64,000 nt of DNA from Planctomycetaceae bacterium (lineage in GTDB: Bacteria > Planctomycetota > UBA1135 > GCA-002686595): positions 15,996-79,995 of the forward strand of contig WYBT01000044.1 in the NCBI GenBank assembly GCA_011525785.1. Reading direction: 5' to 3'. The notes beneath the pieces are model-generated. The model was given only the letters and a program-made list of their open reading frames with translations. It had not been told where the DNA came from and did no database searches. Numbering within the stretch: position 1 is the stretch's first letter; every line of letters starts with the position of its first letter. Both the position numbers and the translations under genes were made by a program. Positions 17,021 through 28,581 of the stretch are shown here, in pieces.

Positions 17021-18157
17021 ATGCGAGCCGTGGCCTCCACCGAGCGCGCCCTCGAGCTGACCCGCGAGTGCGGCTTCGATCTCGCAGGGGTGGCGCCGCT
17101 GCACAGCCCACGGGACGCCGAACACTGGCGGCGCTGGATCGAGCGGGGCCGCCACGCGGGCATGGACTGGCTGGAGCGCGACCTCGAGCGCGTCGCCGAC
17201 CCGCGCACCTGGGCGCCGCGCGGCCGCTCGCTGCTGGTGGTCGGCCTGGGTCACTCGCGCCCCGCGGTGCAACTCCCCGACGGCGCCTCGATCGCGCGCT
17301 ACGCCGCGGGCCGCGACTACCACAACGTCATGCGGCGGCGGCTGCGCAAGCTTCGCCGTCTGCTGCAGCAGGAGGGCTTGATCGGCAAGCCGTCCTGGTC
17401 GTACGTCTCGTCCGACTCCGTGCCGCTGCTCGAGCGCTCGCACGCCGCCGAGGCCGGCCTGGGCTTCAGCTCCAAGGCCGCCAACCTGCTCCACCCCAGC
17501 TTCGGCCCGTGGTTCTTCCTGGGCGAGGTGATCGTCGACGTCGAACTCGAGCCGACGCCTGCGCCGCCGGCCGGGAGCTGCGGAACCTGCCGCGCCTGCC
17601 TCGACGCGTGTCCCACGGGCGCGATCGTCGCCCCTGGCGAGGTCGACGCGCGGCTGTGCTTGAGTTACCACAACATCGAGAGCGAGCACGCAGTGCCGCG
17701 CGAGCTGCGCGCCGGCCTGGGCCAGTGGGCCTTCGGCTGCGACGTGTGCTCGCAGGTCTGTCCGTGGGGCGCGAAGGCCCCGGACTTGAGCGAGCGCTTC
17801 GGCCTGCACCCGAGCCTCGCGGAACACGGCGTCGTGCGCTGGCTCGAACTCGCCGACGAGGCCGAGGTCTCGAGCGTCTTCGCGGGCGCCGCGCTGCAGC
17901 GGCCGCGCCGCGCGGGGCTGGCGCGCAACGCCGCGATCGTGCTGGGCAACCGCGAGGGCCACGAGGCCGACCAAGTGCTGCTGCGCGCGCTCAACTTCGA
18001 CCCCGAACCGCTGGTGCGCGAGGCGGCCGGCTGGGCCCTGGCGCGCACGCGCTCGCACTCGGCCGCGGTCCGTGCGGCGCTCGAGGCTGCCTACGCGCGA
18101 GAGAGCGATCCCGCGGCGCGGGCCGAGTTGCGCCGGAGCCTCGACGGCGAGCTGTGA
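17021..18157 (+). CDS. queG: tRNA epoxyqueuosine(34) reductase
   Basis: 4Fe-4S ferredoxin motifs CGTCRACLDACPTGA and CDVCSQVCPWG. The C-terminal HEAT-like tail is typical of QueG. Confidence 0.85.
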   Translation: MRAVASTERALELTRECGFDLAGVAPLHSPRDAEHWRRWIERGRHAGMDWLERDLERVADPRTWAPRGRSLLVVGLGHSRPAVQLPDGASIARYAAGRDYHNVMRRRLRKLRRLLQQEGLIGKPSWSYVSSDSVPLLERSHAAEAGLGFSSKAANLLHPSFGPWFFLGEVIVDVELEPTPAPPAGSCGTCRACLDACPTGAIVAPGEVDARLCLSYHNIESEHAVPRELRAGLGQWAFGCDVCSQVCPWGAKAPDLSERFGLHPSLAEHGVVRWLELADEAEVSSVFAGAALQRPRRAGLARNAAIVLGNREGHEADQVLLRALNFDPEPLVREAAGWALARTRSHSAAVRAALEAAYARESDPAARAELRRSLDGEL

Positions 18158-21808: not shown

Positions 21809-22537
21809 TTGAACACATCCACAGCATCCCAGGGCGCCTCTCGGCGCGAGCGACTCGCCCACGCGCGCGTGTGCCTGATCCTCACGCCGCAGGCCGCGCC
21901 GCAGCGCGACGTGCTCGCGGCGCTCGACGCGCTGGCCGAGCACGTCGAGCTGGTCCAGGTGCGGCCCAAGGCGCCCGACGCGCGGCCCGACGCGTTGCGC
22001 AGCGGCCCCGCGTGGCGGCGCACGAGCGCGCGCGAGTGCTTCGAGCTGGCGCTCGCGGCGCTCGATGTGCTCGCACGCCTCGGCGAGCGCGCGCCACTGC
22101 TGCTGGTCAACGACCGCGTCGACGTGGCGCGCGCACTGCAGGAGCGCGGCGTCGCGGGCGTGCACCTCGGCCAGGACGACACGCCGCCGCGCATCGCGCG
22201 CGAGCTGCTCGGCCCCGACGCGTTGATCGGCTTCTCGACGCACTCGCTGGCGCAGGTCGCCGCCGCGCAGGACGAGCCGGTCGACTACCTGGGCTTCGGG
22301 CCGGTGTGGGCGAGCTCGACCAAGGGCTACGAGCGCGGACTGGGCCCGCAGCGCGCCTGGATCGCGCAACAGGGCAGCGCTCAGCCGGTGTTCGCGATCG
22401 GCGGCGTGAGCATCGAGCGCGCCGACGAACTGGCGAACGAATTCGCTCCCGCGCGCGTCGCGGTGAGCTCTGCGTTGCTCGACAGCGACGATCCGCGCGC
22501 GGCCGCGCTGCGCCTGCGCGCCGCGCTCGGCGCCTGA
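21809..22537 (+). CDS. thiE: Thiamine-phosphate synthase
   Basis: ThiE-like fold with VCLILTPQ (equivalent to RLYLITD), VQVRPK, and GVHLGQDD...DYLGFGPVWAS...IGGV. TTG start at 21809, uncertain. A GTG at V21 is the alternative. Confidence 0.75.
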   Translation: MNTSTASQGASRRERLAHARVCLILTPQAAPQRDVLAALDALAEHVELVQVRPKAPDARPDALRSGPAWRRTSARECFELALAALDVLARLGERAPLLLVNDRVDVARALQERGVAGVHLGQDDTPPRIARELLGPDALIGFSTHSLAQVAAAQDEPVDYLGFGPVWASSTKGYERGLGPQRAWIAQQGSAQPVFAIGGVSIERADELANEFAPARVAVSSALLDSDDPRAAALRLRAALGA

Positions 22538-22610
22538 AGACTCAGCCCGGGCTTCACGCCGCTGCGCCCCGCGGCATTCGGCCGCGCTGAAAGCTTGGTT
22601 GGGTCGTCGC

Positions 22611-23687
22611 TCAGCGCTCGCCCGGCCGGTCGGTGAGCAGCATCGCGTCGCCGTAGCTGTAGAAGCGGTAGCCCAGCGCGACGGCTTCGCCGTACAGCCG
22701 CAGGATGCGTTCGCGGCCCGCGAAGGCCGCCACCAGCATCAAGAGCGTGCTGCGCGGCAAGTGGAAGTTGGTGAGCAGCGCATCGACCACGCGGAAGGGC
22801 GAGCCGGGCGTGAGGAACAGTTGCGTGCGTCCCGACTGGGCGCGCAGGCGGCCGGAATCGTCCGCGCAGCTCTCGAGCACGCGCACGCAGGTCGTTCCAA
22901 CGGCCAGCACGCGCCCGCCGCGCGCGCGGCACAGCTCGATGGCCTCGACCGTGGCCGCCGAGAGCTCGAAGCGCTCGGAGTGCATCACGTGCTGGCGCGT
23001 GTCCTCGACCGAGACGGGCTTGAAGGTGCCCTCGCCGACGTGGAGCGTCACGCGCGCGAACTGCACGCCCAGCGCCGCGAGTTCGTCGACCAGACGCTGC
23101 GTGAAGTGCAGGCCCGCCGTCGGCGCCGCGACCGCGCCGGGCTCTGAGGCGAAGATCGTCTGGTAGCGCTCGCGGTCGAGCTCGATCTGCTCGCGGTCCG
23201 CGCGCGTGCGGCGGATGTAGGGCGGCAGCGGCGGAGCGCCGTGCAGCTCGATCAGCTCTTCGAGTCCCTCGCGCGAACCGTCGGGCGCGTACAGGTCGAC
23301 GCGCCAGGCGGCGCCGTCGGGGTCGCGCTCGATCGCGCGCGCCAGCAGCGCGCCGCCGGCGATCGACAGCTCTTCGCCGCTCTTGAGGCGCGCCGCCGGC
23401 CGGGCGAGCGCGCGCCACAGCGCGGGCTGCAAGCGCTCGAGCAGCAGCAGTTCGACCTCGCCGCCGCTGGCGCGCAGCGCGTACAGCCGCGCATGCCGCA
23501 CGCGCGTGTCGTTCACCACCACCAGGTCGCCGCCGGTGATCAAGCTCGCGAGCTGGCTCACGCGCGTGTGCTCGCTGCGGTCGGGGCCGATGGCGTGGGC
23601 GAACAGGCGCGCGCTGTCGCGCGGCTCCGCCGGCGACTGGGCGATGCGCTCGGGCGGAAGGTGGTAGTCGAAGTCGCTGACGTTCAT
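22611..23687 (-). CDS. queA: S-adenosylmethionine:tRNA ribosyltransferase-isomerase
   Basis: MNVSDFDYHLPPERIAQ...PLPPYI...TAGLHFT...AVGTTCVRVLES are hallmark QueA motifs. Start from the in-frame ATG (M83 of the track ORF). Confidence 0.85.
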   Translation of the reverse strand: MNVSDFDYHLPPERIAQSPAEPRDSARLFAHAIGPDRSEHTRVSQLASLITGGDLVVVNDTRVRHARLYALRASGGEVELLLLERLQPALWRALARPAARLKSGEELSIAGGALLARAIERDPDGAAWRVDLYAPDGSREGLEELIELHGAPPLPPYIRRTRADREQIELDRERYQTIFASEPGAVAAPTAGLHFTQRLVDELAALGVQFARVTLHVGEGTFKPVSVEDTRQHVMHSERFELSAATVEAIELCRARGGRVLAVGTTCVRVLESCADDSGRLRAQSGRTQLFLTPGSPFRVVDALLTNFHLPRSTLLMLVAAFAGRERILRLYGEAVALGYRFYSYGDAMLLTDRPGER

Positions 23688-25213
23688 CGGGTGCGAGCCA
23701 GGCCCGCGCGAACCAAGAGACCGAGCGGCGCGGCGAACATCAATGGCCAGAGCCAGACCGGCGCCGTCCATTCGCCCGCCGCGCGCCAGCGTTCGAGCAT
23801 CACGTACTGCGCCGGCGCCAGCGCGGTGAGCACGGCCATGGCCAGCGCGAGGCTGGCGTCGCGCTCTGAGCGACTGCCTGCTTGAACCTCCGCGCTTCGC
23901 GCTGGTCGCAGGAGGTAGCAGCGACCCCACCAAGACCTCGGCGCGGCCGAATCACGCGGAGCGCGGCGGCGCTTTGGCCGATGCGCCCACTGGATGCGGC
24001 GTGAAGGCCGCGCTGAGGGCGCGCTCGCGAGCGCGAGCGGAAGCCAGACCGCCACCCAGGCCGCGTACCACGGGTGGAAGGTCGGCGAGAGCACGATCAC
24101 GGCCGCGCTGGCGCTCAGCGCTCCGCGCTCCGGCGCCGGGCGACGCGCGGCGATCCAGACCAGCAGCGCCGCCGCGAGGACGACGCACAACCGACGCGCG
24201 ATGTGCTGCGGCTCGAGTCCCCACGCGCCCTCGCCCCAGACGGCGCCGATCAGCGCGCGCAGCGGCGTGTAGATTGCGCTGGTCGACTCCCACCAGCCGG
24301 CGTAGGTCGCAAGCGCGCTGCGGCCCGGCGCGGCGCGGATCGACCAGGCCAGCGGCGCGAGCAACAGCGCCGTCGCGAGCGCGAACACGAGCAGCGGCCG
24401 CCGTCCCGAGCGCGCGCGCGGGAGCCACGCGACGAAGCAGATCGGCAGGAGCTTCACGGCGACCGCGCCGGCGAGCAGCAGCGCCGCGCAGCGCGGTGCG
24501 TGCGCGAGCATGGGCGAGAGTGCGGCGAGCGCCAGAGCGATGCCGAGCGCGTCGAAGTGCGCGGCGCCCGCGAACTCGAGCGCCACCAGCGGGCACCAGG
24601 CCCAGGCGAGCCAGGCGCCGCGCGCGAAGCCGCGCCGCGCGAGCCAGCGCTCGAGCAGCACGGCCACAGCGAAGTCGCCGAGCAACGCGAGCATCCGCAA
24701 CGCGATCAGCCGCGCGAGTTCGAGCCCGACCAGTCCCGTCAGCGCCGCAGCTCGCGCCGCCAGGGCCGCGATCACGAAGCTCGCCTGCGCCAGCGGCGGG
24801 TAGATGGCCGGGATCGAGCGGTGCTCGACGGCCGAGTGGAGCGTCGCCAACTCGCGCGCCAGCGGCTCGAGCGCGGCGGAGTCCGGCGCCAGCACGTACG
24901 GGTTGAAGCCCGCCAGCCAGACCTCCGCCTCCCAGGCGTAGCGCTGGACGTCGGGACTGGTCGGCGGCGCTGCGGCCCAGGCGAGCGCGCGCAGGGCCGC
25001 GAAGCCGCCCCAGGCCAGCGCGCGCGGCACGTCGGCGCGGCGCAGCGCGGCGCACAGCGCCAGCCAGACCAGTCCGCTCAGCACCAGCGCGCCGACCGCC
25101 CAGCGCTGCGGCAGCCCGAAGGCGCCGGCCGCGAAACTCGCGACCAGAACGGCCAGGGCCAGCGTCGAACGGGTGGCGGCGCGATCGGCGGGCAGTCTCA
25201 CGGCTGCCAGCAT
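23684..25213 (-). CDS. Polytopic membrane protein, GT-C-like (DUF2029 / glycosyltransferase family 87-like)
   Basis: 509 aa with at least 10 hydrophobic helices and an HPWY element near the C-terminus. Its stop overlaps the queA start (ATGA). Confidence 0.5.
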   Translation of the reverse strand: MLAAVRLPADRAATRSTLALAVLVASFAAGAFGLPQRWAVGALVLSGLVWLALCAALRRADVPRALAWGGFAALRALAWAAAPPTSPDVQRYAWEAEVWLAGFNPYVLAPDSAALEPLARELATLHSAVEHRSIPAIYPPLAQASFVIAALAARAAALTGLVGLELARLIALRMLALLGDFAVAVLLERWLARRGFARGAWLAWAWCPLVALEFAGAAHFDALGIALALAALSPMLAHAPRCAALLLAGAVAVKLLPICFVAWLPRARSGRRPLLVFALATALLLAPLAWSIRAAPGRSALATYAGWWESTSAIYTPLRALIGAVWGEGAWGLEPQHIARRLCVVLAAALLVWIAARRPAPERGALSASAAVIVLSPTFHPWYAAWVAVWLPLALASAPSARPSRRIQWAHRPKRRRAPRDSAAPRSWWGRCYLLRPARSAEVQAGSRSERDASLALAMAVLTALAPAQYVMLERWRAAGEWTAPVWLWPLMFAAPLGLLVRAGLARTR

Positions 25214-25491
25214 GCGGCCCTCCGGCGGCCGCCCAAAGTCGGTCGCGGCGGCCGCGGCGCCGCCACGTTCGTCGGGCGCCTCCCGAGACGCTTCCCCCCC
25301 CCGCCGGCGCGGTCCTGGGCCCGGCCACGGGGGCCGCGTTCCAACCCGGGAACAGAAAACGAAAAGACACTTCAGATGCGCCGGAGAAAACCCGTAGAAC
25401 GGTTAGCAGAGCCAACGCGCTCTGCACTCCATGGCATGCCCGGGGGGGCCGTGCCTGGAGGCCGCCGCTTCCCATCCAGGGAGGTGACGAC

Positions 25492-25531
25492 AGAGAGCCC
25501 GCCGGCCCCAACTGGCGGGCTCTCTGCTTTT
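25492..25531 (+). terminator. Strong orphan intrinsic terminator (possible 3' end of an sRNA)
   Basis: Perfect 12-bp stem AGAGAGCCCGCC / GGCGGGCTCTCT with a 10-nt loop, followed by GCTTTT on the plus strand. No plus-strand CDS ends upstream of it. An A/T-richer stretch lies at 25340-25420. Confidence 0.55.
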
Positions 25532-25584
25532 CACGCGAGCGCAGCGTTCGGCCGGCCGCCGTGGACGCGGGCCTCGAGCGCGGC

Positions 25585-28581
25585 TCAGCTCGCGGCGTCG
25601 GAGAGCTGGGACGAGTCCGCGCCCGACTCGCGCGCCCCCAACTCGCGCGAACTGGGCGGCGCGGCGCCGTCGCGAGCCGACTCGGCGCCGAGTGCGTGAG
25701 CGTCGGCGCGCGTCAGAGCGTGCTCGTCGAGCCCCAAGTCGCGCATGCGTGCGACCAGCGTGTCGGGATCCCAGCCCAGGTACAGCGACGCACGCGTCTT
25801 GTTGAGCGTCCCGCGCAGGTTCATCGTGCTGAGCAGCGCCGCGCGCACCAGCCCCTCGTCGGGCGCGCGCGAGTTCACGCGGCGCAGGAGTTCGTGTCCG
25901 AAGCGTCGCGCGATGCGCTCGACCTCGTCGGCGCGCAAGCTGCGGCCCGGCGCCATCAGCACCAGCTTGAATACGAAGCTCTCCAGGTCGCGCACGTTGA
26001 ACGGCCAGGGCTGACGCCACAAGAGCGCGATCGCGTCGTCCTCGAAGGTCGGCGCGGGCACGCCCTCTTCCTGCGCGACGCGCTGTGCGAGCAGGTGCAG
26101 CAGCTGCGCAAGCTCGGTGCGCCGCTGCGCGAGGTCGGGCACGCACAGTTGCAGTCGTTCGAGCCTCTGGCGCAGGTCGACGTGCACCAGCGTGGCGATC
26201 GCCGGGTCGCTGGCGCGCGCGCTCGAGCACACCACCCAGCGCGGACCGCGCGCGTGCCCGCCGCGCCGCGGGGCATCCAGTCTGGCCGCCAGCCGCAGTT
26301 GATCGGTCTCACTCAGCCGCTCGAGCTGCTCGAGCACGACCGTTCCGGGCGAGTTCCAGACCGCGCTGTCGGGCGTGGGCAACTCGCCCGACAACTCCAG
26401 CAGCGGCGCCTCCGGAGCGGGTCCGCAGAAGTGCAGCCAGCGCGCCACAACGCTTTTGCCGACGCCGCGGCCGCCGCAGAGGGTCACGTGGGCGCTCGAG
26501 CGCGCGGCCAGCGAGAAGGGCTCGATCCAGGCCTGGGGACCGTGTCCGATGTGCACGTCGACGCCGAACTTCGCGCGGTGCCACTCGCGGAACTGCGCCA
26601 CGCGCAGCTGCAAGGCGAAATCGCCGGCGCGCTCGAGCCAGCGCTGGGCCAGGGACTCGGGGAAGTCGCGCCGGCGGGTCGACTCGAGCACCAGCAGACC
26701 GCACAGCTCGCCGTGGCGGCGCAACGGCAGCACCAGACCGCTCGCGCTTGCGGCGTGCATCGAAAGCTCGGCGCGCGGCTCGTCGTAGCGCACCATCGCA
26801 GCCGTGCGCAGCGCGCGCAGCACGCCCCGCCGACCGCCCGCCCCAGTCGCCGACGACGGCAGCGGCGCGGCCCACTCCGCGGCCGCGCGCGTCGGCGCGA
26901 CTCGCGCGACATCGCCCCCGCCACGCTTCGGTGCGTCGCTCGTAACGCCGCCCACAGCAACATTCGCAGCGCCGTTCGCCGCTCCGGTCGAGCCCTGGAC
27001 GGACTCGAGCGCGCGCCCCGGCGCCTCTTCGACGCGCGCGCCGCCGCCCAGCGCAACGCAACGCAGCCGCCGCGGCCCGACGTCGAAGCCCCACCAGCGG
27101 CGCTGCGCGGTCTTCATGCCGAGCGCCTCGACCAGCGCTTCGAAGGCGCGCGCCGCGGGAGGCTCCACGACCTCGCTCGCGGGCTGCCACTCGACCTCGA
27201 GCGCGGGGAGCGGGCCGCCGCGCTCGCCCTGCGCCGGCGCCGAAGCGACGGCGGTTGCGTCGAGGCCGCCCAGCAGCGCCGCTCGGTCGCGCTCAACGCC
27301 CGCGGCCGGCGTGCGCGCGCACGCGCGCTGCGCGAATTCGCGGGCGAGGCGCGTGAGCGTGGCGCGCGCGGGCGCGAGGTGGTGCTCCCACTCCAAGCGC
27401 AGCCAGCCGCACGCTTCGCCCTGCGCGTCGAGGTACGGAGCGATTGCGACGCAGGCGACGGCCGCGCGCTGGATCGTGTCGCTGGCGGCGCCCGCCAACC
27501 CGCGGTGGGCCAGCGCGGGACGCGCGTCGAGGATCGCCTGTCGCTCGAGCGCGGCCCACTCTCCGCCGCTGTGTTCGAGCCCGCGCTTCCACTCGCGCAC
27601 GCGCTCGCGCAGGCCGGGCGCGACGTCGAGCGCGACCACTCGCGTCGCGTTCCGGGCGCACAGCTCGACCTGCGCCACCGCGCAGGCGCCGATGCGCCGC
27701 CGCAGCTCGCTCAGGTCGCCGTGGTCCGCCCGCGCGAGCGCCGGCGGCGGCTCGGGCGCGGCTTCGGACGGCGGAACCGCGCTCGCGCGACCGGCGAGAC
27801 AGGCGAGCCACTGCGGCGCCGACGCGCGCAGCTCGACCAGCGCCTGCGGCAGACGCCCCGTCCAAGGCTGGTGCGCGCGACGCTCGGCCTCGCGCGCGGC
27901 GGGTTCATCGCCGCTGAGCAGCGCGCACCACACCGCCAGCCGCAGCGCGCGCGCACTGAGCGGCAGCGCCCAGGCGTGCTCCGCGAGCGCGCGCTGCGCG
28001 GCCCGCACGGCCCCGCGCTCGAGGGCGCACTCGACCGCGCCGCACAGGGCCTCCGCGCGCTCGGGCGAAGTCGGACCTCGCAGCAGCGCCTGGAAGCTGC
28101 GCTCCGCAGCGGCCGGCCCGTGCGTCACGCGCTCGAGCCGCGCGCGCCACAAACCCAGCGCCGGTTCGTCCACGCCCAGCGCGGGCAGCGCTGCGATCAG
28201 GCGCGCAGCCAGACCCGCGGCGCGCTCGTTGGGCGCCGGCGTGCGCGGCAGGTCGCGCAACTCGTCGCGCAGGGCCTCGAGCTGGCTCCAGCACTCGTGC
28301 GCCTCGCGTTCGGGTTCGCCGAACCACAGGAAGCTCTCGCTCCCCAGCTCCGCGTACAGATGCAGGCGCAGCAGATCGAGCAGCGCGGCGCGGGCCTGCG
28401 CGCGCACGTGTTGGTTGAACTCGTCGCGCGCCGCGTCCAGGCCAGCGCCGACCGCCGCGGCCCGCGGTGCGCGCGCCTCGTCGCGCAACAGGCGCAGGAA
28501 GGTCGTGACGCGCCGCGCGTGCTCGAGGTAGGCAGCGGGCGCGCGGGGCAGCAGCAGATTCAGGTTGTCGACGGCTCGCAT
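25585..28581 (-). CDS. Large regulator with sigma-54-activator-like AAA+ domain (no GAFTGA) and C-terminal Fis-type HTH
   Basis: Walker A GGRGVGKS. Walker-B-like VVLEQLERLSETDQLRLAARL. Sensor II / arginine region RVVCSS...DLRQRLERLQLCVPDLAQRRTEL. HTH LNKTRASLYLGWDPDTLVARMRDLGL. The GAFTGA loop is replaced by SGELPTPDS. A GAF-like segment lies upstream. The ~600-aa N-terminal region has unknown function. Confidence 0.55.
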   Translation of the reverse strand: MRAVDNLNLLLPRAPAAYLEHARRVTTFLRLLRDEARAPRAAAVGAGLDAARDEFNQHVRAQARAALLDLLRLHLYAELGSESFLWFGEPEREAHECWSQLEALRDELRDLPRTPAPNERAAGLAARLIAALPALGVDEPALGLWRARLERVTHGPAAAERSFQALLRGPTSPERAEALCGAVECALERGAVRAAQRALAEHAWALPLSARALRLAVWCALLSGDEPAAREAERRAHQPWTGRLPQALVELRASAPQWLACLAGRASAVPPSEAAPEPPPALARADHGDLSELRRRIGACAVAQVELCARNATRVVALDVAPGLRERVREWKRGLEHSGGEWAALERQAILDARPALAHRGLAGAASDTIQRAAVACVAIAPYLDAQGEACGWLRLEWEHHLAPARATLTRLAREFAQRACARTPAAGVERDRAALLGGLDATAVASAPAQGERGGPLPALEVEWQPASEVVEPPAARAFEALVEALGMKTAQRRWWGFDVGPRRLRCVALGGGARVEEAPGRALESVQGSTGAANGAANVAVGGVTSDAPKRGGGDVARVAPTRAAAEWAAPLPSSATGAGGRRGVLRALRTAAMVRYDEPRAELSMHAASASGLVLPLRRHGELCGLLVLESTRRRDFPESLAQRWLERAGDFALQLRVAQFREWHRAKFGVDVHIGHGPQAWIEPFSLAARSSAHVTLCGGRGVGKSVVARWLHFCGPAPEAPLLELSGELPTPDSAVWNSPGTVVLEQLERLSETDQLRLAARLDAPRRGGHARGPRWVVCSSARASDPAIATLVHVDLRQRLERLQLCVPDLAQRRTELAQLLHLLAQRVAQEEGVPAPTFEDDAIALLWRQPWPFNVRDLESFVFKLVLMAPGRSLRADEVERIARRFGHELLRRVNSRAPDEGLVRAALLSTMNLRGTLNKTRASLYLGWDPDTLVARMRDLGLDEHALTRADAHALGAESARDGAAPPSSRELGARESGADSSQLSDAAS

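Follow-up and report, generated by a model that had tools for sequence, protein, structure and literature searches.

Small RNAs (sRNAs) that depend on sigmaE and are driven by GGAAC-type promoters are known from enterobacteria, with RybB and MicA as examples (PMC1804206, PMC1312014). The rules for such promoters in Escherichia coli are a −35 element GGAACTT and a −10 element TCAAA, a spacer of 15–19 nt (16 being preferred) and a discriminator of 5–6 nt (PMC1312014). A different arrangement is found in Myxococcus, where the sRNA gene pxr lies directly downstream of the NtrC-like gene pxrR, in an intergenic region of about 400 bp with several stem-loops, and has been kept across the lineage (PMC5684412). 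Here we analyze a 64-kb window (the whole stretch of DNA under study) of one Planctomycetota contig and, within it, an element in the gap between two minus-strand genes, one coding for an AAA+ regulator and the other for a membrane glycosyltransferase of the GT87 family that is followed by queA. The original prediction had singled out a plus-strand intrinsic terminator in this gap, orphaned by the orientation of both genes, as the possible end of an sRNA. Comparative evidence supports that prediction, and our best reading of it is that the element is a structured non-coding RNA of about 150–185 nt and that the orphan terminator is its 3′ end. We give a probability of roughly 60% to the specific explanation we favor, namely a new, independently transcribed, structured sRNA on the plus strand, encoded by a single-copy gene that is convergent with the regulator gene and divergent from GT87-queA. 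To our knowledge, very few regulatory RNAs have been characterized in Planctomycetota. With 15 members in uncultured lineages, strong covariation and an invariant hairpin of 13 nt, the new RNA family is well supported and suitable for addition to RNA family databases, and it could serve as a starting point for studying RNA-based control linked to the envelope or to a regulator in this phylum.

The closest functional likeness is to the terminator-ended, stress-sigma-driven sRNAs RybB and MicA, although the element belongs neither to their families nor to Pxr. Like RybB and MicA, it would be a stand-alone intergenic gene whose −35 and −10 elements, of the GGAAC and TCAAA types, lie about 16 nt apart, and a conserved single-stranded region close to the 5′ end (here a CCGUA motif at about +10) would be followed by a Rho-independent terminator. 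Unlike them, the predicted RNA has roughly double the length, with three internal helices and an invariant G-rich hairpin; it comes from another phylum, and it resembles them in neither sequence nor model, with no Rfam match to either family in the window or in 14 homologous loci. Its dependence on an extracytoplasmic function (ECF) sigma factor is putative, and the promoter-like motif is degenerate in the most distant loci. With Pxr it shares the position of an sRNA gene kept beside the 3′ end of a gene for an NtrC-like AAA+ regulator. However, Pxr is encoded on the strand of pxrR, with a predicted sigma54 promoter and enhancer site, whereas the favored strand of our RNA is convergent with the regulator gene, and the two show no similarity in sequence or in Rfam. 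No conserved sigma54 motif (GG-N10-GC) was found within ±700 nt in any locus, nor was a GAFTGA motif or loop found in the 998-aa regulator, and for these two reasons an sRNA of the sigma54-dependent Pxr or Qrr type is not supported.

The Rfam check called for by the original prediction was run on the window and its relatives. At the gathering threshold, Rfam 15 gave no match in the 64-kb window and none in 124 kb covering 14 homologous loci, and a permissive scan of the 600 nt at 25100–25700 returned only sub-threshold noise around the hairpin. The nearest scores, with E-values of 0.25–4 in this 600-nt search, were those of asX1 (RF02235; 23.7 bits against a gathering score of 70), ctRNA_pGA1 (RF00236; 18.2 against 45) and ar14 (RF02344; 14.5 against 58.8), which share just a GC-rich terminal hairpin with the window RNA and match it at chance level. 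The element thus matches no catalogued family and is best filed as a putative new sRNA family of a known general kind.

A non-coding module conserved in 15 loci

Relatives of the locus were retrieved from genome and metagenome collections through both flanking proteins, and the named records among them are uncultured Planctomycetota or Planctomycetia. A strict search of metagenomes with a three-block pattern returned 3 loci only; most homologues came through orthologues of the regulator protein. About 185 nt, corresponding to positions 25350–25537 of the window, recur in 15 distinct loci (individual loci are designated L003, L004 and so on), always downstream of an orthologous regulator gene, and the identity of the regulator across the loci that carry the element runs from 75% down to 35%. 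Between the window and its closest relative, L003, the core is 86.9% identical while both flanks are at 44–46% and the GT87 protein at 68%. The element stands about 20–600 nt from the stop codon of the regulator gene and about 130–400 nt from the next start codon. These variable distances, together with the difference in identity between core and flanks, indicate a discrete, selected module rather than the tail of either gene. The element is retained where GT87 is absent, as in L017, which continues straight to queA, and where GT87 is replaced by an unrelated open reading frame (ORF), as in L008. It is absent from L010 and L020, where queA directly follows the regulator gene. A covariance model of the element has a single match in the 64 kb, at 25350–25537 on the plus strand (155 bits, E = 2e-38).

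The same comparison bears on whether the region could encode a small protein or be a mobile element or a REP-like repeat. Long open frames do run across it on both strands, which is usual in DNA of 75% GC. Nevertheless, on neither strand does any frame remain open throughout the homologues: stops interrupt all three plus-strand frames in L011 and L018, and all three minus-strand frames in L008, L011, L016 and L018. The hairpin sequence, like the whole model, occurs once in the window, and its syntenic position never changes among the loci, so that we consider either alternative exceedingly improbable. The element thus exists as a discrete, non-coding module conserved in 15 loci.

Two loci call for separate mention. 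In L010 the regulator is 60% identical and is followed by queA, with neither the RNA nor GT87 between them; the 246-nt intergenic region contains, at about 4690–4710, the sequence TGGCACGAAGTTGC, which is near the sigma54 −24/−12 consensus with the spacing one base short. In L005 and the clade around it, the spacer between the regulator stop and the RNA measures 300–600 nt, against 20–180 nt elsewhere, and in L005 itself tandem repeats of about 13 nt (GAGGCGCGAAGGC...) occupy this spacer at about 5190–5370.

Terminator hairpin and covarying helices

The 3′ end of the module is the hairpin P1, at 25491–25526 on the plus strand, which reads CAGAGAGCCCGCC-GGCCCCAACT-GGCGGGCTCTCTG. The claim of a strong terminator hairpin holds, with the correction that the perfect stem has 13 Watson-Crick pairs and not 12. 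Two inner pairs, G25504·U25513 and G25505-C25512, extend it to 15 bp and leave a 6-nt loop, CCCCAA, and the folding energy is −31.5 kcal/mol. CTTTTC directly follows the stem, so that the RNA would carry a CUUUU tail at 25527–25531 (T25528–25531), whereas the minus strand continues after the stem with GUCGUCACC (also written GTCGTCACC) and lacks a U-tract, as had been stated. P1 therefore has the sequence features of an intrinsic terminator, a GC-rich stem with a short loop and a U-tract 3′ of it on the plus strand. The window contains just two perfect hairpins with 13 bp or more, and P1 alone has a run of four T right after it; by our own estimate from base composition, about 0.1 hairpins of this type would be expected by chance. 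A 3′-end hairpin of −23 to −34 kcal/mol is present on the plus strand of every one of the 15 loci, and in 13 of them at least 4 U fall within 10 nt after it (L018 has UUUUUUU). The terminator thus recurs on the strand originally proposed, and the hairpin, its U-tract and some 150 nt upstream are conserved as one module.

The predicted RNA folds far better than its composition would suggest: the 151 nt at 25383–25533 give z = −6.1 on the plus strand, and none of 200 shuffled sequences folded as well. Four helices, P1–P4, persist even though the sequences that form them differ from one clade to another. In the 15-sequence model alignment, 92.9% of the cells are paired, against 43–60% when the partners are slid by 1–3 columns, and double changes occur at 21 of the 31 pairs, against 5–8 in the slid controls. 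None of 500 shuffles reached the observed pairing values, and a 13-sequence alignment agrees. As judged from this pattern of substitutions, selection has maintained all four helices.

The helices differ in how far they have changed. P4 (25406–25425, plus strand) pairs GCAGAGC with GCUCUGC around the loop CAACGC; five different helix sequences are found across clades (GCAGAGC, GUGGAG, GCGGGGC, GUGAGG and GGAGCC), with double changes at all 6 pairs. P3 (25427–25460) is a long stem whose outer part has been swapped between clades, the versions being CUCCA/UGGAG, CUGCUCG/CGAGCAG, CCAACCCC/GGGGUUGG, CCUUGCGC and CCCACUGAC, with double changes at 5 of 5 pairs. Its tip is the invariant 13-mer GCCCGGGGGGGCC (25438–25450), which forms a 4-bp stem (one G-C and three C-G pairs) closed by a GGGG loop. 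This 13-mer is identical in the 13 closer loci, is retained in L018 and has one extra G in L019, and it stays constant despite a fall in the identity of the neighboring protein to 35–44%. P2 (25466–25486) pairs CGCUUCCC with GGGAGGUG around the loop AUCCA; its core, CUUCC/GGAAG, is conserved and covaries to UCCCC/GGGGA in L019. P1 varies most in sequence (AGAGAGCCCGCC, GGGGGGCCGCUCGC, GGGGCCGUGGGC, GGGGAGCCCGUUC and GGGCCGCUGGCA among clades), with double changes at 7 of 11 pairs. Upstream of the helices, some 10 nt in from the predicted 5′ end, is the motif CCGUA (25392–25396), which mostly remains unpaired or falls within a loop. Thirteen of the 15 loci have the full motif, whereas L018 and L019 have CGUA; it makes a candidate seed or protein contact. 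An intergenic, non-coding unit with sharp edges of conservation and a covarying structure is also what would be expected of a trans-encoded sRNA.

Some of these features could be explained with no stable functional RNA at all, if P1 were a terminator or insulator for convergent transcription and the rest of the module consisted of DNA-level sites for the flanking genes. In about half of the loci, the distance between P1 and the stop codon of the regulator gene is 20–180 nt, so that P1 could stop that gene; even as the end of a plus-strand sRNA, it may also stop or pause minus-strand transcription. A palindromic box upstream of the RNA (described below) and, in the L005 clade, a second palindrome (P6) have the appearance of protein-binding sites. 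Nonetheless, P1 lacks a minus-strand U-tract and in the L005 clade lies 300–600 nt away from the stop codon of the regulator gene, and DNA-binding sites do not explain four helices kept by double substitutions over about 130 nt. We regard this explanation as quite improbable.

Promoter-like motif and strand of the RNA

The sequence upstream of the helices is A/T-rich for this genome, as the original prediction had observed when it suggested a promoter there: the GC fraction is 0.58 at 25350–25449 and 0.75–0.85 on either side. Within this stretch, a pattern search found a promoter-like bipartite motif at 25349–25376 (plus strand), consisting of GGAAC(AG), a 16-nt A/T-rich spacer and TCAGA, which resembles the sigmaE/ECF consensus GGAACTT-N15-19-TCAAA (the consensus being that of E. 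coli; PMC1312014). With CCGUA as the anchor of the alignment, the loci show a pair of blocks at fixed positions, G(G/C/A)AAC and TC(A/T)(A/G)N, the latter 15–16 nt after the initial 7-mer, while the A/T-rich spacer varies. The window thus has GGAACAG-N16-TCAGA, L005 GCAACGA-N16-TCAAG, L004 GCAACGT-N15-TCTAG and L008 GAAACAT-N15-TCAGG, and the distance from the −10-like block to CCGUA is a constant 15–16 nt. The presence of the A/T-rich stretch inside a conserved two-block motif of promoter-like spacing agrees with the promoter suggested for it. If the sigmaE rules hold, transcription would start near G25383, CCGUA would stand at about +10 and the RNA would be about 149 nt long (25383–25531), a length within the 120–170 nt foreseen for a plus-strand sRNA ending at 25531. 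The 5′ end could also lie upstream of a weak hairpin at 25366–25382, as early as about 25354, which would give about 178 nt; both the promoter and the 5′ end are placed here by motif rules.

The −35-like element is also the second half of an imperfect palindromic box, GTTCC-AACCCG-GGAAC, at 25338–25353, whose consensus in the relatives is GTTkC-N6-GmAAC. The box is equidistant from the CCGUA anchor in 11 of the 13 close loci and degenerate in L018 and L019. It may be an operator, a −35 element or both, and as an operator it could conceivably serve the neighboring regulator. The RNA may be controlled by an ECF-type sigma factor, by this regulator acting through the box, or by both.

The strand of the functional RNA was approached through folding energies and wobble pairs. 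In mirror MAFFT alignments, the RNAalifold consensus energy is −40.6 kcal/mol for the plus strand and −24.3 kcal/mol for the minus strand; the summed minimum free energies of P1–P4 are −983.6 and −929.7 kcal/mol, respectively, and single-sequence energies favor the plus strand in 9 of 13 loci. Consensus pairs include 28 G·U cells against 10 A·C cells. Independent A-to-G changes opposite U, in P2 (once in the window and L003 and once in L006) and in P4 (L003), keep the pairing on the plus strand only: in the window, L003 and L006, P2 contains a plus-strand U·G pair whose minus-strand counterpart would be a C·A mismatch, and G·U pairs of P4 occur exclusively in the plus orientation in L003, L004, L011, L016, L017 and L018. 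Two other measures were set aside. A count on the raw MAFFT alignment (36 G·U against 37 A·C) was uninformative because the helices are misaligned in it, and a Watson-Crick-only alifold drops the informative columns and was rejected as a strand test. Taken together, the quality of the terminator, the energy of the consensus fold and a slightly larger number of wobble pairs favor the plus strand, on which the functional RNA probably lies.

Several observations weigh against a plus-strand sRNA gene. The promoter motif occurs twice in the window against 1.95 occurrences expected, so that a single occurrence is not significant; it is degenerate or fits poorly in L016–L019, and no ECF sigma gene was seen among the 10 small ORFs of the window that were tested. 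The U-tract after P1 is weak in L007, L013, L016 and L017. A complement of CCGUA (UUACGG) or of the C-run kind is not shared at the starts of neighboring genes in 8 loci. With mismatches counted in a strand-neutral way within helices defined by Watson-Crick pairs, the plus strand leads by just 24 to 18. For the 55 promoter-proximal nucleotides, the minus strand gives a slightly better fold (−174 kcal/mol and 25 G·U pairs, against −165 kcal/mol and 10), as it does for P3 of the L005 clade, in which the tandem G·U pairs of L005 and L007 form on the minus strand only. The hairpin at 25366–25382 shows compensatory changes in the L005 clade that would not be expected of mere promoter DNA. Lastly, the minus-strand form of the invariant motif, GGCCCCCCCGGGC, presents a C-rich loop, and C-rich loops, as in 6C and RsaE/RoxS, are well-known sRNA seeds and more usual ones than G-rich loops.

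A first alternative is a functional RNA on the minus strand, where the mRNA of the regulator would have a structured 3′ untranslated region (UTR) or would be processed into an sRNA. Such an RNA would begin with P1 as a 5′ hairpin, expose GGCCCCCCCGGGC as a C-rich seed loop and end at the weak 25382–25366 hairpin and the U-run after it (25351–25365). A terminator scan did match the minus strand at 25351–25382, where the weak hairpin GGCGC-AUCUGAA-GUGUC (25382–25366) is followed by UUUUCGUUUUCUGUU, overlapping the plus-strand promoter-like motif; the loop of this hairpin is the −10-like block. The hairpin plus UUUUCGUUUU is found in the window and L003, usable versions exist in L007, L013, L016 and L017, and the element always follows the regulator gene, whatever comes next (queA in L017, another gene in L008). 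The compensatory changes of the L005 clade would fit a palindromic operator, or else a terminator that stops minus-strand transcripts reading through from the regulator gene; in the window, the 25382–25366 hairpin may terminate such read-through.

The evidence against a minus-strand RNA begins with this same hairpin. Its energy is −4.9 kcal/mol in the window, the hairpin-plus-U candidates of the relatives range from −1.6 to −17 kcal/mol with inconsistent tails, and they are weak or absent in L004, L006, L008, L011, L012, L015, L018 and L019. Upstream of P1, nothing promoter-like is conserved save an A-run. The wobble positions in P3 of the L005 clade are broken on the minus strand as well in L006, L012, L013 and L015, and since they are broken in four sister sequences they look like a free internal loop. 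The energies of the consensus and of P1–P4, the wobble counts and the A-to-G changes in P2 and P4 all favor the plus strand. As for 6C and RsaE/RoxS, to which the element could be compared only if the minus strand were the RNA, the likeness is that a hairpin from a high-GC organism carries a run of C7 at its tip; there is one C-run instead of two or more, the RNA is much larger, no 6C-like Rfam match was obtained in the window region or the 14 homologous loci, and the strand evidence points the other way. We therefore hold a minus-strand RNA to be unlikely.

A second minus-strand alternative is a riboswitch or attenuator leader of GT87-queA, with P1–P4 as the sensor and the 25382–25366 hairpin and its U-run as the expression platform. 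The order of a structured domain, a hairpin with a U-run and a gene on the same strand does resemble a transcription-attenuating leader, and in most loci the next gene is GT87, then queA. Yet the downstream gene is inconstant, as L017 and L008 illustrate, and L010 and L020 have queA without the element; between the element and the start codon lie about 130–400 nt of unconserved sequence, the supposed platform hairpin is very weak and unconserved, the strand evidence favors the plus strand and the Rfam scans matched no riboswitch family. A leader function is very improbable.

The two ends of the module could also be reconciled by a combined, speculative picture, in which the RNA gene is fully antisense to the 3′ UTR of the regulator gene and each terminator lies near the end of the other gene. 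This would explain why the ends of the module fold best on different strands.

Proposed role and gene neighborhood

Under the favored explanation of a plus-strand sRNA, transcription would start near 25383, downstream of GGAAC-N16-TCAGA, and the RNA would consist of a short 5′ region with CCGUA, then P4, P3 with its GCCCGGGGGGGCC cap, P2, and P1 with the U-tract, ending at about 25531. We infer that it would act in trans as a regulatory RNA. The CCGUA region and the G-rich tip of P3 would be the contacts with its targets, which might be mRNA sites that are C-rich or contain UUACGG, or a protein, and the variable P1, P2, P4 and outer P3 stem would provide fold, stability and termination.

The constant neighbor of the RNA is the orthologue of the 998-aa AAA+ NtrC-like regulator, encoded convergently at 25585–28581 on the minus strand. 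The regulator matches the Pfam models AAA_lid_14 and Sigma54_activ_2, and only the last 100 or so residues of its AAA+ domain (about 800–890) match NtrC-family models, which are matched partially. It has a Walker A motif GGRGVGKS, an NtrC-type lid and a C-terminus resembling a Fis-type helix-turn-helix. To judge from these features and its lack of GAFTGA, the protein is unlikely to be an enhancer-binding protein (bEBP) of the conventional sigma54 type. The RNA and this GAFTGA-less regulator might form one conserved functional module, an undescribed RNA-bEBP circuit, in which the RNA, through its GCCCGGGGGGGCC hairpin, would be the direct output of the regulator, or its ligand or antagonist, and the two genes would be coupled by an RNA that is antisense, over its full length, to the regulator 3′ UTR. 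We consider such a circuit rather doubtful.

On the other side, divergent from the predicted RNA, the gene of the GT87/MptA_B-family membrane glycosyltransferase occupies 23684–25213 on the minus strand; the statement that both flanking genes are on this strand was correct. It is followed by queA (22611–23687, minus strand), which overlaps the GT87 stop codon by 4 nt, and this overlap suggests that the two form one operon. An ORF at 22381–23418 is spurious and was discarded in favor of the real queA. The gene order common among the relatives is SPFH/Band_7, two unknown genes, the regulator, the RNA element, GT87, queA and thiE. A run of nine C at 25293–25301 on the plus strand (read as G9 from the minus strand, where it would fall within the 5′ UTR of GT87) is situated in the unconserved spacer between the promoter-like region of the RNA and the GT87 start. 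L002, a Logan contig of 2842 nt from SRR10807893, begins 190 nt upstream of the GT87 start, at about window position 25403 and thus inside the RNA element, and ends 49 nt past queA. Depending on the type of sequencing run, these two ends may correspond to those of a transcription unit formed by GT87 and queA.

Further from the element, a pair of queuosine-pathway genes lies within 7 kb, a queG-like epoxyqueuosine reductase gene (17021–18157, plus strand) and queA on the minus strand, with a gene for an FG-GAP/ASPIC protein between them. Finally, a second strong perfect hairpin of 13 bp is present at 62411–62441, with the sequence GCCCGCCCAGCCG-GTTTT-CGGCTGGGCGGGC and a T-rich plus-strand tail, TGTCTGTC; it sits about 110 nt upstream of the start of a minus-strand DUF2071 gene (61447–62301).

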